DNA of 64,000 nucleotides from Escherichia coli. Lineage in GTDB: Bacteria; Pseudomonadota; Gammaproteobacteria; Enterobacterales; Enterobacteriaceae. Under the pieces are notes generated by a model. It saw only the letters and a list, made by a program, of their open reading frames with translations. It had not been told where the DNA came from and did not search any database. Positions 3,355 through 24,002 of this stretch are shown one piece after another. Numbering within the stretch: the first letter of the stretch is position 1; each line of letters opens with the position of its first letter. Made by a program: the position numbers and the translations under genes. Where the stretch lies: NCBI RefSeq assembly GCF_003334255.1, contig NZ_QOWU01000004.1, one strand, 5' to 3'.

Positions 3355-3391
3355 TTTGTTTTTCTCTTTTCGTTGTTTGCTGTCCTGATAA

Positions 3392-3408
3392 TTGCAACCG
3401 TCGTGCCA
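3392..3408 (-). promoter_or_regulatory. sigma54 (-24/-12) promoter of rtcBA
   Basis: Minus strand reads TGGCAC-GACGG-TTGCA, a perfect GG-N10-GC sigma54 element about 40 bp upstream of the rtcB start; divergent rtcR encodes the cognate enhancer-binding protein. Confidence 0.85.
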
Positions 3409-3542
3409 GAAAATTAAATAAGCAGCTTAATTTTTTAATTCATTGTTTTAAAAAAGATTATATCTTTACGTCCGTAACCGGAGATTTCCCGCAAAGCCAA
3501 TTTACCGATAATGAAATATCGTCTTTTATAAGGATATCTAAG

Positions 3543-5141
3543 ATGCGTAAAACAGTGGCTTTTGGCTTTGTCGGTACCGTACTGGATTATGCCGGGCGCG
3601 GCAGTCAGCGCTGGTCAAAATGGCGTCCGACACTCTGTTTATGCCAGCAAGAATCGTTGGTCATCGATCGACTGGAATTGTTGCACGACGCCCGCTCGCG
3701 CTCGCTATTTGAAACGCTTAAACGCGATATCGCCAGCGTTTCGCCAGAAACAGAAGTGGTGAGCGTTGAGATTGAACTGCATAACCCGTGGGATTTCGAA
3801 GAGGTCTACGCCTGCCTGCATGATTTCGCCCGTGGTTACGAGTTTCAGCCAGAAAAAGAAGACTATTTAATTCACATCACCACCGGTACCCACGTCGCGC
3901 AGATTTGCTGGTTTCTGCTGGCAGAAGCGCGTTACCTGCCCGCCCGGCTGATACAATCTTCACCTCCGCGCAAAAAAGAACAGCCGCGCGGCCCAGGTGA
4001 AGTAACGATTATCGATCTCGATTTAAGCCGTTATAACGCCATCGCCAGCCGCTTTGCCGAGGAACGCCAGCAAACGCTTGATTTTCTTAAGTCCGGCATT
4101 GCCACGCGTAACCCCCACTTCAACCGCATGATTGAGCAGATCGAAAAAGTGGCGATCAAATCCCGCGCGCCGATTCTGCTTAACGGTCCAACCGGCGCGG
4201 GCAAGTCATTTCTGGCGCGACGCATCTTCGAGTTAAAACAGGCGCGGCATCAGTTTAGCGGCGCGTTTGTGGAAGTGAACTGCGCCACCCTGCGCGGCGA
4301 TACCGCCATGTCGACGCTGTTTGGTCATGTAAAAGGCGCGTTTACCGGGGCGCGGGAATCTCGTGAAGGTTTATTACGCAGCGCCAACGGCGGAATGTTG
4401 TTTCTTGATGAGATTGGCGAACTGGGCGCAGACGAACAGGCAATGCTGCTGAAAGCCATTGAAGAGAAAACCTTTTACCCGTTTGGCAGCGATCGCCAGG
4501 TGAGCAGTGATTTTCAGCTTATCGCCGGAACGGTGCGCGATTTGCGCCAGCTGGTTGCCGAAGGCAAATTTCGCGAAGATCTGTACGCGCGGATCAATCT
4601 CTGGACCTTCACCCTGCCGGGTCTACGCCAGCGCCAGGAAGATATTGAACCGAACCTGGATTATGAAGTGGAGCGCCACGCCTCACTCACTGGCGACAGC
4701 GTGCGTTTTAACACCGAAGCGCGGCGCGCCTGGTTGGCTTTTGCGACCTCTCCCCAGGCAACATGGCGCGGTAACTTTCGCGAACTTTCTGCCAGCGTCA
4801 CGCGGATGGCCACCTTTGCCACTAGCGGACGCATCACTCTGGACGTGGTTGAAGATGAGATAAACCGTCTGCGCTATAACTGGCAGGAGAGCCGCCCCTC
4901 CGCGCTTACGGCGTTGCTGGGCGCAGAGGCAGAAAACATCGATCTCTTCGACCGTATGCAACTGGAACACGTTATCGCTATCTGCCGCCAGGCAAAGTCG
5001 CTTTCCGCAGCCGGACGCCAGCTTTTTGACGTTTCGCGCCAGGGCAAAGCCAGCGTCAATGACGCGGATCGGCTACGCAAATACCTGGCGCGTTTTGGTC
5101 TGACGTGGGAAGCCGTGCAGGATCAGCACAGCTCCAGTTGA
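3543..5141 (+). CDS. rtcR: sigma54-dependent transcriptional activator RtcR
   Basis: 532-aa ORF with AAA+ sigma54-interaction motifs ([22 protein letters not shown]). Confidence 0.95.
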
Positions 5142-19050: not shown

Positions 19051-20154
19051 TTACGCCAGTTGACGAAGCATCCGACGCAGCGGCTCCGCGGCCCCCCACA
19101 GCAGCTGGTCGCCCACGGTAAAGGCTGACAGGAACTCTGGTCCCATATTCAGCTTACGCAGGCGGCCTACCGGCGTGGTCAGCGTGCCGGTAACGGCAGC
19201 TGGGGTTAGCTCACGCATAGTGATTTCCCGATCGTTCGGAACGACTTTCGCCCACGGATTGTGCGCAGCCAGCAGTTCTTCCACGGTCGGAATAGACACA
19301 TCTTTTTTCAATTTAATAGTGAATGCCTGGCTGTGGCAGCGCAATGCCCCGACACGCACACATAAACCATCTACCGGAATTACGGAAGATGTGTTGAGGA
19401 TCTTGTTGGTTTCCGCCTGCCCTTTCCACTCTTCGCGGCTCTGACCGTTATCGAGCTGTTTGTCGATCCACGGAATCAGGCTACCCGCCAGCGGCACGCC
19501 AAAGTTATCCACCGGCAGCTCACCGCTACGGGTTAAGGTTGTGACTTTGCGTTCGATATCGAGAATAGCAGAGGACGGGGTCGCGAGTTCATCTGCCACA
19601 TGGCCATACAGATGGCCCATCTGGGTTAATAACTCACGCATATGTCGCGCACCACCGCCGGAAGCGGCCTGGTAGGTTGCAACGGACACCCAATCAACAA
19701 GATCATTGGCGAATAAACCACCCAACGACATCAACATCAGGCTTACGGTACAGTTACCGCCAACAAAAGTCCTGATGCCATTATTTAATCCGTCGGTAAT
19801 GACGTCCTGATTGACGGGGTCAAGAATGATGATGGCGTCATCTTTCATGCGCAGAGACGATGCTGCGTCAATCCAGTAACCTTGCCATCCGCTTTCACGA
19901 AGCTTTGGATAGATTTCGTTGGTATAATCGCCGCCCTGACAGGTCACAATGATATCGAGGGCCTTTAGCGCCTCCAGATCAAAGGCATCCTGAAGTGTGC
20001 CAGTGGTTCCGCCAAAAGACGGCGCAGCCTGGCCAAGCTGAGAAGTAGAAAAGAAGACAGGGCGAATGGCGTCGAAGTCGCGCTCTTCAACCATGCGTTG
20101 CATGAGAACGGAGCCGACCATACCGCGCCAGCCGATAAAACCAACATTTTTCAT
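19051..20154 (-). CDS. asd: aspartate-semialdehyde dehydrogenase
   Basis: ORF track 19051..20277; start trimmed to [16 protein letters not shown] (367 aa). Confidence 0.95.
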
Positions 20155-20346
20155 AAGCGTTTTTTTCCTGCAAAGATGTGTGCTGTATAAATGTGCCGGT
20201 CTCCTCTTGGCACATCTTTCACCATACAAAAAGCAGCCAAAGTCGCAAGTGAAATTAATCAATGATAGCGAAGCCATCAGTAATGCGACTTATCCTGCTT
20301 TGTTAGCACGCAGAAAGTCCGCGGCAATTATCAGGGAATTTGAGTT

Positions 20347-20996: not shown

Positions 20997-22337
20997 TTAA
21001 CTCAACAGCTGGAACGCAATCATCCCAACGATGGCACCGACAGTGCCGAGGATGGTTTCCATCATGGTCCAGGTTTTCAGCGTTTCGGCTTCGGTCGCGC
21101 CGGTAAATTTACCGAACAACCAGAAACCGGCGTCGTTAACGTGGCTGACAACAATCGAACCACCAGCGATACAAATCGACAGCGCCGCCATTTGCGCACC
21201 GGAGTAGTTCAGTTGTTCAATAACCGGCATCACCAGTCCTACCGCCGTTAAACAGGCTACGGTGGCAGAACCCTGAATGATGCGCACTGCAGCTGCCAGC
21301 ACGAAGCAGGTGATAGCAATCGGCAGGCCCATGCCGGTTAACGCTTCGCCCAGTGCCGGACCTACGCCAGAGTCAACCAGCACCTGTTTGAACACGCCGC
21401 CCGCACCAATCACCAGCAGAATGATCCCCGCCGGTTGCAGCGCGTGACCGCAAATCTCCATCACTTTGTCTTTTGGCATGCCCTGACGCATTGCCAGACC
21501 GTAAATCGCCACCAGACAAGCAACCAGAATCGCGGTAAACGGATGACCGATAAACTCAAACCATTCGTAAGCAGTTGATCCTTCCGGCACAAAACGCGCG
21601 GCAATGGTTTTCAGCCCTACCAGCACCAGCGGCAGCAGGATCAGCGACAGGCTGAATCCGAAAGATGGCATTTTGCCTTCGCCGAGATGCGGTTCGCTGA
21701 TGTCGTCAGGAATATGCAGCTCAACGTAACGGCTGATGAAGTTACCCCACAGCGGCCCGGCAATAATCATTCCCGGAATTGCCGCACACAGGCCAATCAG
21801 GATCATCCAGCCAAAGTCGGCATTCATCTGCGATGCCAGCAGCATCGGCGCTGGTCCAGGCACCAGAAATGCCGCCGCTGCCGCCACGCCTGCAAATAAT
21901 GGGATTACCAGCTTCACCAGGTTCGTACCGGTGTGGCGCGCCATTGAGAAAGCAACGCTAATCAGCAGAACTATCGCCACTTCAAAGAACAGCGGTAGCG
22001 CACAGACCAGCCCCGCAAGGCCGATGGCATAATGCGCGCGGCTGTGACCGAAGGATTTGAGCATTTTGACGGCAATCTGATCGACTGCGCCGGTTTCATG
22101 TAAGATCTTGCCAAACATAGCTCCCAGGGCGACAACCACCGCCAGGAAGCCGAGGGTGCCTCCCATCCCTTTTTCCATCGTCGCTGCGATTTTATCGAGC
22201 GGCATACCAGAAAAAAGGCCAGCCCCCATGGACACCACCATTAAAGCCAGGAAAGCGTGCATACGCGCCTTCATGACTAAAAACAGCAGCAGTAAAACAG
22301 ACCCTACTGCTGTTAAAACAAGCGTTAATGTAGTCAC
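20997..22337 (-). CDS. gntU: low-affinity gluconate:H+ transporter
   Basis: 446-aa polytopic ORF recognised as GntU. Confidence 0.95.
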   Translation of the reverse strand: MTTLTLVLTAVGSVLLLLFLVMKARMHAFLALMVVSMGAGLFSGMPLDKIAATMEKGMGGTLGFLAVVVALGAMFGKILHETGAVDQIAVKMLKSFGHSRAHYAIGLAGLVCALPLFFEVAIVLLISVAFSMARHTGTNLVKLVIPLFAGVAAAAAFLVPGPAPMLLASQMNADFGWMILIGLCAAIPGMIIAGPLWGNFISRYVELHIPDDISEPHLGEGKMPSFGFSLSLILLPLVLVGLKTIAARFVPEGSTAYEWFEFIGHPFTAILVACLVAIYGLAMRQGMPKDKVMEICGHALQPAGIILLVIGAGGVFKQVLVDSGVGPALGEALTGMGLPIAITCFVLAAAVRIIQGSATVACLTAVGLVMPVIEQLNYSGAQMAALSICIAGGSIVVSHVNDAGFWLFGKFTGATEAETLKTWTMMETILGTVGAIVGMIAFQLLS

Positions 22338-22340
22338 TAC

Positions 22341-22868
22341 TTATTTGCCTTTTTTAATAACCTCAATGGTGCTTGCCACAACACCTTCCAGCGGTTGATC
22401 GATATCCACCACCAGTACATCGGTTTCGTCCGCACCCGGCTCCTGCAGCGTTTCAAACTGCGTCACCAACATTTGGGTTTTAAAGAAATGGCCTTTGCGC
22501 GCTTTCAGGCGGCTTTCAATCACATCAAAATCGCCTTTCAAATAGATGAAAGAGAGATTCGGATTACCTTCACGCAGCAAGTCGCGATAGTGTTTTTTCA
22601 ATGCAGAACAGACGATCAGCGACACTTTATTAGTGCGCTGCATAGCAAACGCGGCGTCGTTCAGCGCCTGCAACCACGGTTTGCGATCGTCGTCATTCAG
22701 TGGTTCGCCAGACGCCATTTTTTCGATATTGCGCCGTGGATGGAGGAAATCGCCATCAAGAAACGCGGCATGAAGTTGATGCGCCACTTCACTGGCGACC
22801 GCAGATTTGCCGCTGCCCGATACGCCCATCAAGACGTAAATGTGGTGATCATGGTTAGTCGTGCTCAA
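22341..22868 (-). CDS. gntK: gluconokinase (thermoresistant)
   Basis: ORF track 22341..22889; N-terminus of GntK as I recall it (MSTTNHDHH...) corresponds to a TTG codon at 22868-22866; P-loop GVSGSGKS present; start codon choice uncertain. Confidence 0.85.
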   Translation of the reverse strand: MSTTNHDHHIYVLMGVSGSGKSAVASEVAHQLHAAFLDGDFLHPRRNIEKMASGEPLNDDDRKPWLQALNDAAFAMQRTNKVSLIVCSALKKHYRDLLREGNPNLSFIYLKGDFDVIESRLKARKGHFFKTQMLVTQFETLQEPGADETDVLVVDIDQPLEGVVASTIEVIKKGK

Positions 22869-22898
22869 AGTGGTGCCCCCACAATACAAGAATTAAAA

Positions 22899-22927
22899 AT
22901 GTTACGGGTAACTGTTATCGGTAACAT
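22899..22927. promoter_or_regulatory. GntR operator pair upstream of gntK
   Basis: ATGTTACGGGTAAC and TGTTATCGGTAACAT, two overlapping ATGTTA-N4-TAACAT-type near-palindromes about 30 bp upstream of gntK. Confidence 0.7.
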
Positions 22928-23006
22928 TGTCCAGCCGGACAATATCAGAAGCAATATCCATCCATGCCTTAAGTGTATAAGTGTGAGCTACTTCAAATTT
23001 GTGGGC

Positions 23007-24002
23007 TTAAATAGATCCGCCCGGTGACAAGGTGAAACCTAAATCTAACATTTTCGGTGTCACAGATTCGCCACGAATACGCGCCAGCAGGCGTTCAGCG
23101 CCAATACTGCCCATCCGCTCACGCGGCGTCAGCACGCTCGCAAGTCGTGGCTCCATCACCTGACCAATGTCATGACCGTGGAAACCGGCAATCGCCATAT
23201 CGTCAGGAACTTTTAACCCCAGACGCTGACATTCAAACGCCGCGCCGACCGCCAGGTCATCATTCGTACAGAACACGCCATCCAGCTGCGGATATTCCCG
23301 CCGCGCCTGGCGAATCAGTTCAATACCGGAAGAGTAAGAAGAAGATTGCTCAACCATCACGCTATATGGCACCAGGCCTGCATCCAGCATCGCCTGTTCG
23401 TATCCCTTCTGTTTGATGATAGTACGTTCGTCGAGACGTGCGCCGAGATAGGCAATGTGGCGATGCCCGCGAGCAATAATGGCAGTGGTCATCTGGCGTG
23501 CTGCTTCAAAGTTATCAAAACCGACGGCGATATCAAGGCATGGCGACTTGCTGTCCATCAGTTCCACCACGGGAATACCCGCCACTTCAATCATCTTTAA
23601 GGTGCGCGGCGTGTGGGTACGTTCGGTGAGGATCAGGCCGTCGATATTCCAGGAGAGCATGGATTCGAGGCGTTCTTGCTCCATTTCCGGTTTATAACCG
23701 TAGTGCGCCAGCATGGTCTGATAACCGTGCGCGTCGGTGACGCTTTCGATTCCGCGTAATACTTCCGCGAAAACCTGGTTGGTGAGAGAAGGTAACAGGA
23801 CGCCAATCGCCCGGCTGGTGGCGTTAGAGAGGATATCGGGCGCACGATTGGGAATATAGCCCAGTTCATCAAGAGCCGCGGCAATCTTGCCGCGTAGAGC
23901 GACGGAAACCTGCTCCGGGTTGCGTAAAAAACGGCTGACCGTCATTTTGGTCACGCCTACACGGTCAGCCACATCCTGAAGTACGGGTCTTTTCTTTTTC
24001 AT
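23007..24002 (-). CDS. gntR: LacI-family gluconate repressor
   Basis: 331-aa ORF with an N-terminal HTH (LQDVADRVGVTKMTVSRFL). Confidence 0.95.
   Translation of the reverse strand: MKKKRPVLQDVADRVGVTKMTVSRFLRNPEQVSVALRGKIAAALDELGYIPNRAPDILSNATSRAIGVLLPSLTNQVFAEVLRGIESVTDAHGYQTMLAHYGYKPEMEQERLESMLSWNIDGLILTERTHTPRTLKMIEVAGIPVVELMDSKSPCLDIAVGFDNFEAARQMTTAIIARGHRHIAYLGARLDERTIIKQKGYEQAMLDAGLVPYSVMVEQSSSYSSGIELIRQARREYPQLDGVFCTNDDLAVGAAFECQRLGLKVPDDMAIAGFHGHDIGQVMEPRLASVLTPRERMGSIGAERLLARIRGESVTPKMLDLGFTLSPGGSI

Follow-up and report, generated by a model that had tools for sequence, protein, structure and literature searches.

The TTG initiation codon and overlapping GntR operators of the Escherichia coli gntKU operon

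In the GntI system of E. coli, gluconate releases the repressor GntR, letting gntKU be expressed. The closest described counterpart of the DNA analysed here is the gntRKU (GntI) locus of E. coli K-12, which is also the worked example for LacI-family double sites with a 13-bp offset: Ravcheev et al., 2014 (PMC4052901) state, with reference to Tsunedomi, 2003a, that function has been demonstrated for overlapping sites about 13 bp apart upstream of gntKU, report this arrangement as conserved in over half of the GntR-regulated operons of the gamma-proteobacteria, and note that the structural mode of double-site binding is unclear. In addition, gntK is a known CRP target, recovered by Genomic SELEX as well. 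A close counterpart within the regulon is the promoter of gntT, which encodes the high-affinity gluconate transporter; it shares the 16-bp GntR motif ATGTTACCCGTATCAT, carries a second, weaker site, and is a CRP target. Its two GntR sites lie about 140 bp apart (positions 3384-3399 and 3525-3540 of locus L083), whereas those of gntK overlap at a 13-bp offset. A further point of comparison is the set of E. coli genes that start with UUG, around 81 of which had been annotated in K-12 by 2006; such starts are uncommon yet unremarkable.

The gntRKU locus

The window, by which we mean the whole 64,000-nucleotide stretch of DNA that was analysed, is E. coli K-12-like, and a window coordinate equals the MG1655 coordinate minus 3,554,724. 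The gntK gene thus corresponds to 3577065-3577592 on the minus strand of K-12 MG1655 (b3437). In sequence, gene order, start codon, operators and CRP site alike, nothing sets this locus apart from its K-12 counterpart. A query of 801 bp around the gntK start matched several complete E. coli genomes, some of them K-12-derived, at 100% identity, and was found in 5425 of 5426 complete genomes, where the annotation always reads gntR, gntK, gntU. The substance of what we describe for the gntK start and the GntR operators is already in curated annotation and the literature. The genes run in the following order on the minus strand, with a spacer of 138 bp between gntR and gntK.

23007 to 24002, minus strand: gntR, LacI-family gluconate repressor (NF011563 and RefSeq)
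22341 to 22868, minus strand: gntK coding sequence, thermoresistant gluconokinase, 175 amino acids plus stop (RefSeq; identity with 1KNQ; NF008583)
20997 to 22337, minus strand: gntU, low-affinity gluconate transporter, with a GTG start (open reading frame list and RefSeq annotation)

The identity of the first two genes is given by NCBIfam equivalog models. The gene directly upstream of gntK scores 776.4 bits against the GntR model NF011563 (cut-off 433), and GntK scores 373.6 bits against the gluconokinase model NF008583 (cut-off 265); against the GntK/IdnK subfamily model TIGR01313 GntK reaches 241.7 bits (cut-off 113.75) and covers profile positions 1-164. The 175-residue sequence is identical to residues 1-175 of chain A of PDB entry 1KNQ, and the P-loop GxxGxGK[ST] with its preceding beta-strand, IYVLMGVSGSGKS, as read from the translation, is identical in this solved structure.

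Several observations concern the neighboring reading frames. The GTG start of gntU (22337) lies only 4 nt past the gntK stop codon TAA (22343-22341, minus strand), and its Shine-Dalgarno sequence, at -3.2 kcal/mol, is one of the weakest in the set of 35 local genes; given the short gap and the weak Shine-Dalgarno, this suggests that gntU is translationally coupled to gntK. Both genes of the gntKU operon have non-ATG starts. On the opposite strand, a mechanical open reading frame of 210 amino acids (22395-23027, plus strand) spans gntK and the whole promoter-operator region; RefSeq annotates nothing there, and it is most likely a shadow of the gntK frame. The open reading frame listed for asd (408 amino acids, 19051-20277, minus strand) adds 41 codons 5' of the annotated start (MG1655 3574878, window 20154), and this extension (20155-20277, minus strand) is another over-call of a start by the longest-frame rule.

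The start codon of gntK

Three start forms of gntK have been deposited for the same DNA. The 175-residue form, named GNTK_ECOLI, is found on at least 1000 contigs; the 162-residue form, named 'ORF_f162 [E. coli K-12 MG1655]', on 998; and the 182-residue form, which comes from O157:H7 annotations, on 25. Deposited variants of 176 and 177 residues also begin MSTTNHDHH and differ at the C-terminus only. The codons and the ribosome-binding sequence that bear on the choice between these forms are the following.

22866 to 22868, minus strand: TTG, supported as the gntK initiation codon (80 orthologous loci; codon periodicity; fixed Shine-Dalgarno distance)
22876 to 22880, minus strand: Shine-Dalgarno sequence GGGGG, with a 7-nt spacer to TTG 22868 (anti-Shine-Dalgarno duplex energy; conservation in 80 loci)
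22887 to 22889, minus strand: upstream in-frame TTG, the mechanical reading-frame start of the 182-residue form; not the start (no Shine-Dalgarno, no conserved frame)
22827 to 22829, minus strand: downstream in-frame ATG (Met14), the start of the original K-12 'ORF_f162'; not the start (no Shine-Dalgarno, clipped profile)

The preliminary description of this DNA had placed the GntK N-terminus MSTTNHDHH at the TTG at 22868-22866, and database records and our comparison of genera agree with it. The codons that follow this TTG (AGC ACG ACT AAC CAT GAT CAC CAC) encode (M)STTNHDHH, both RefSeq and the K-12 annotation begin the coding sequence exactly at 22868, and the 175-residue GntK named in UniProt and PDB chain 1KNQ both start MSTTNH. 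The 1KNQ construct was presumably designed from the annotation, and the structure is therefore not independent proof of the start.

An identification of the start that does not depend on annotation comes from the comparison of 80 orthologous loci in about 25 enterobacterial genera, including Escherichia, Salmonella, Citrobacter, Klebsiella, Raoultella, Enterobacter, Kosakonia, Kluyvera, Leclercia, Lelliottia and Buttiauxella. The position orthologous to TTG 22868 is TTG in 77 of the 80 loci and ATG in the remaining three (Yokenella, Trabulsiella and Buttiauxella). The coding signature directly after this codon is clean, with entropies of 0.09, 0.04 and 0.80 bits at the three codon positions, and periodicity is absent from the preceding 24 nt, where the values are 1.5, 1.3 and 1.2. 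Between the operator core and the start lie 18 to 87 nt, depending on the locus, and all three classes modulo 3 are represented (41, 23 and 17 sequences). This comparison strongly supports the translation of gntK from TTG 22868.

The Shine-Dalgarno sequences point to the same codon. The preliminary description held that neither the TTG at 22868 nor the one at 22889 has a strong Shine-Dalgarno, which is right for the latter and wrong for the former. The GGGGG upstream of TTG 22868 forms a duplex of -8.4 kcal/mol with the 3' end of 16S rRNA, through four G-C pairs and one G-U pair; among the 35 annotated starts in the 45 kb around it this is the sixth strongest, an energy attained at just 1.5% of random positions (null P = 0.015). 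Every one of the 80 loci has a purine-rich equivalent (GGGAGG, AGGAGG, GAGGGA) at the same distance from its start, the duplex energies ranging from -5.6 to -11.8 kcal/mol. The other in-frame start codons have no Shine-Dalgarno: the energies are +0.6 kcal/mol for TTG 22889, +0.4 for ATT 22841, +0.6 for TTG 22832 and +1.2 for ATG 22829.

Initiation mostly at TTG 22868 with a minor isoform from TTG 22889 or ATG 22829 is the alternative that survives best, and we nevertheless regard it as very improbable. Dual start sites are reported by TetRP for a number of E. coli genes, and nothing that we retrieved measures gntK initiation directly: a search for literature on the gntK start codon or N-terminal evidence gave nothing relevant, and gntK has no entry in the Nakahigashi TetRP supplements or in the Romero 2014 supplement, the gene probably being repressed in the media of these studies. 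Against a second isoform, both candidate codons are without a Shine-Dalgarno, the upstream one is without a conserved frame, and no sequence feature calls for such a product.

Initiation solely at ATG 22829, which would give the 162-residue 'ORF_f162', would follow from a preference for a canonical ATG over a TTG. Besides its canonical codon and its 998 contigs, it has behind it an older published regulatory table, in which the gntKU CRP site is placed at -171, the distance from the first base of the site (23000) to ATG 22829. We consider this start highly improbable. Codons 2-13 of gntK are under strong purifying selection, with mainly synonymous variation; the 162-residue form covers TIGR01313 only from position 4, losing the first three positions that the 175-residue form retains; and it loses the strand before the P-loop, although the distant gluconokinases of known structure 3T61 and 4EUN align from residues upstream of Met14. 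The current K-12 protein record, NP_417894.2, is the 175-residue form, and the -171 listing together with the version number.2 leads us to infer that the K-12 entry was revised from 162 to 175 residues. A large share of deposited annotations is still truncated to 162 residues.

The 182-residue reading is as poorly placed. It follows the longest-frame rule, as in some O157:H7 annotations, and gives a protein beginning MYCGGTTL. The preliminary description was correct in its coordinates for this frame: the mechanical reading frame 22341-22889 opens at the TTG at 22889-22887, seven codons upstream of TTG 22868, and stop codons at 22895 and 22904 stand just before it. The open frame offers no start codon before TTG 22889, and this codon would lie within the transcript under both promoter models discussed below. 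Yet the seven extra codons show neither coding periodicity nor conservation, indels of every length class occur upstream of TTG 22868, in 36 of 81 sequences the frame, followed upstream, meets a stop before any start codon, and the curated databases reject this form; it has hardly any probability of being the native start.

With TTG 22868 as the preferred start, gntK resembles other E. coli UUG-start genes in pairing a rare start codon with an above-average Shine-Dalgarno; it is the only TTG start among the 35 genes in the neighborhood. Conservation of this codon is no stronger than that of neutral four-fold sites. We considered whether TTG is kept by selection for weak gntK initiation and found no support for this: the non-TTG fraction is 3.7%, and 11 of 48 four-fold degenerate gntK sites show as few or fewer transversions, a result that is not significant.

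GntR operators and the putative promoter

The 138-bp spacer between gntR and gntK holds two overlapping GntR operators, together with conserved sequences that we take as a putative sigma-70 promoter and a site for cAMP-CRP.

22899 to 22914, minus strand: GntR operator O2, promoter-proximal, CAGTTACCCGTAACAT (2 mismatches to consensus; core conserved)
22912 to 22927, minus strand: GntR operator O1, distal, ATGTTACCGATAACAG, overlapping the putative -10 hexamer (3 mismatches to consensus; nearly invariant in 80 loci)
22926 to 22931, minus strand: putative -10 hexamer GACAAT (same offset in 90% or more of 77 distinct sequences)
22949 to 22954, minus strand: putative -35 hexamer TTGCTT, with a 17-bp spacer to GACAAT (ATTGCTT at a fixed offset)
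22979 to 23000, minus strand: cAMP-CRP site AAATTTGAAGTAGCTCACACTT (identical to the published 22-mer; conserved)

The two 16-bp operators overlap by 3 bp, with their centers 13 bp apart; the plus-strand strings quoted in the preliminary description, ATGTTACGGGTAAC and TGTTATCGGTAACAT, lie at 22899-22912 and 22913-22927. The two operators combine into a 29-mer, a 12-of-14 palindrome whose 15-nt arms are 87% complementary. The end of the proximal operator (22899) is separated from TTG 22868 by 30 nt, in keeping with the initial account of near-palindromic operators about 30 bp upstream.

Assignment of these palindromes to GntR, also made in that account, is borne out by several lines of evidence. 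With up to three mismatches allowed, the window contains four matches to ATGTTACCCGTAACAT where 0.33 would be expected; no shuffled sequence out of 100 reached four. The published E. coli GntR operator ATGTTACCCGTATCAT, one base off the consensus, occurs as an exact copy upstream of gntT, and GntR-type motifs are present in the nfuA-gntT, zwf-edd and idnD-idnK intergenic regions. Conservation is concentrated on the operators: mean entropy is 0.069 bits within the 29-bp block but 0.65 for the 40 bp on its upstream side and 1.43 on its downstream side. Only eight variants of the block occur in the 80 loci, with changes almost all at the symmetry center (A or T) and the last base, and the GTTACCCGTAAC core of O2 is invariant in 78 of the 80. 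The motif, its conservation and the cited experiments support the identification of the block as two GntR operators, and the near-invariance in our loci fits the 13-bp arrangement for which gntKU serves as the worked example.

The motif has other matches. The site in the zwf-edd spacer lies at 4800-4815 of locus L084, and a second GntR-like site with three mismatches, TTGTTACGCGTAACAA, falls in the first codons of edd, at 4578-4593 of the same locus (MG1655 1934577-1934592). The fourth match in the window, ATTTTACCCGAATCAT (three mismatches, 29025-29040, plus strand), lies inside the IS1E element that interrupts yrhA; we take it as a chance match and reject it as a GntR site.

An alternative function for the 29-bp palindrome, as a hairpin in the leader RNA or as the site of some other regulator rather than primarily a GntR operator, can be given scarcely any weight. 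The palindrome would be partly transcribed under the promoter model set out below, and the paralogous regulator IdnR/GntH is reported to act on GntI genes too. Binding by IdnR/GntH would add to that of GntR and not replace it, the motif is the published GntR operator and recurs at other promoters of the regulon, a gntR equivalog adjoins the palindrome, and the cited experiments support GntR function. As to RNA structure, the E. coli leader folds less well than shuffled sequence (z = +1.56), showing no significant secondary structure, and an Rfam search of this leader returned no family; on these two results we rejected the idea that this leader contains a regulatory hairpin or an RNA of a known kind.

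In the Klebsiella/Raoultella clade the leaders are organized differently: about 50 nt that E. coli lacks are inserted between the GntR operators and the Shine-Dalgarno. The insert is present in loci L024, L025, L028, L029, L032, L033, L039, L045, L046, L055 and L063, at about 1925-1985 in each (alignment A1). For this insert RNAalifold predicts an approximately 11-bp stem, five pairs of which have changed at both positions (CG to UA and GC to AU, for instance). The Rfam search with the leader of this type from L025 gave no match.

A strict scan for the sigma-70 consensus called no promoter on the minus strand at gntK, and our assignment of the promoter rests on conservation for this reason. 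In an alignment anchored on the operators, ATTGCTT and GGACAAT are conserved at fixed offsets, with a 17-bp spacer of variable sequence between the hexamers; the missed call fits a weak, activator-dependent -35 element. On this assignment gntK transcription would start near 22919, giving a leader of 51 nt and placing the operators at roughly -8 to +21. An alternative promoter, TTGTCC-17-GATAAC, with a start about 12 bp further downstream, is less likely, as its -35 element is not conserved outside Escherichia.

The CRP 22-mer AAATTTGAAGTAGCTCACACTT is listed as the gntKU site in the literature, with identical sequence and a weight-matrix score of 13.1, and is conserved at 90% or more across genera. 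Its center at 22989.5 lies at -70.5 or -71.5 from a start at 22919 or 22918, respectively, and at about -82.5 from that of the alternative promoter. Taking class I positions as those in which the 22-mer is centered near -61.5, -71.5 or -82.5 of the transcription start, these distances would be compatible with class I geometry at gntK. Between the gntR stop codon (23007) and the gntK promoter (22932-23006, minus strand) we found nothing resembling an intrinsic terminator, and read-through from gntR into gntKU is therefore possible as far as the sequence goes.

A model for gntKU expression and its meaning

Taken together, our data are best accounted for by a model in which this locus holds the promoter and operators of the E. 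coli gntKU operon together with its translation-initiation region, and we assign this reading a probability of about 0.93. In this model a weak sigma-70 promoter, TTGCTT-17-GACAAT, with its start near 22919, would depend on cAMP-CRP bound about 70 bp upstream (22979-23000) in class I geometry, both of these elements being suggested by conservation. GntR, a LacI-family protein encoded immediately upstream, would bind the two 16-bp pseudo-palindromes at 22927-22899, with centers 13 bp apart. The resulting 29-bp near-palindrome would cover the -10 hexamer and the start site and reach about 20 bases into the transcribed sequence; as these sites would cover the core promoter, bound GntR would block RNA polymerase. 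In the transcript, a leader without significant structure would recruit the ribosome through the G-rich Shine-Dalgarno GGGGG (22880-22876), seven nt upstream of TTG 22868, and this codon would be read as fMet to initiate gntK.

The value of these results lies mainly in annotation hygiene. Here a rare TTG start with a good Shine-Dalgarno has led gene finders astray both upstream and downstream, and a simple comparison across genera settles the gntK start without experiments.

A scientific point already raised in the literature is how two LacI-family dimers occupy sites only 13 bp apart. One answer, which we offer tentatively and think unlikely, is that O1 and O2, which have their outer bases in common, act as a single symmetric unit of 29 bp, near-invariant across enterobacterial genera. 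In a weaker variant of this idea, the TTG start may be kept by selection to hold GntK translation low, although the selection test described above was not significant. If the 29-bp block does act as one unit, its occupancy would have to be non-canonical, either through two dimers bound on different faces of the DNA with distortion of the helix, or through mutually exclusive binding.
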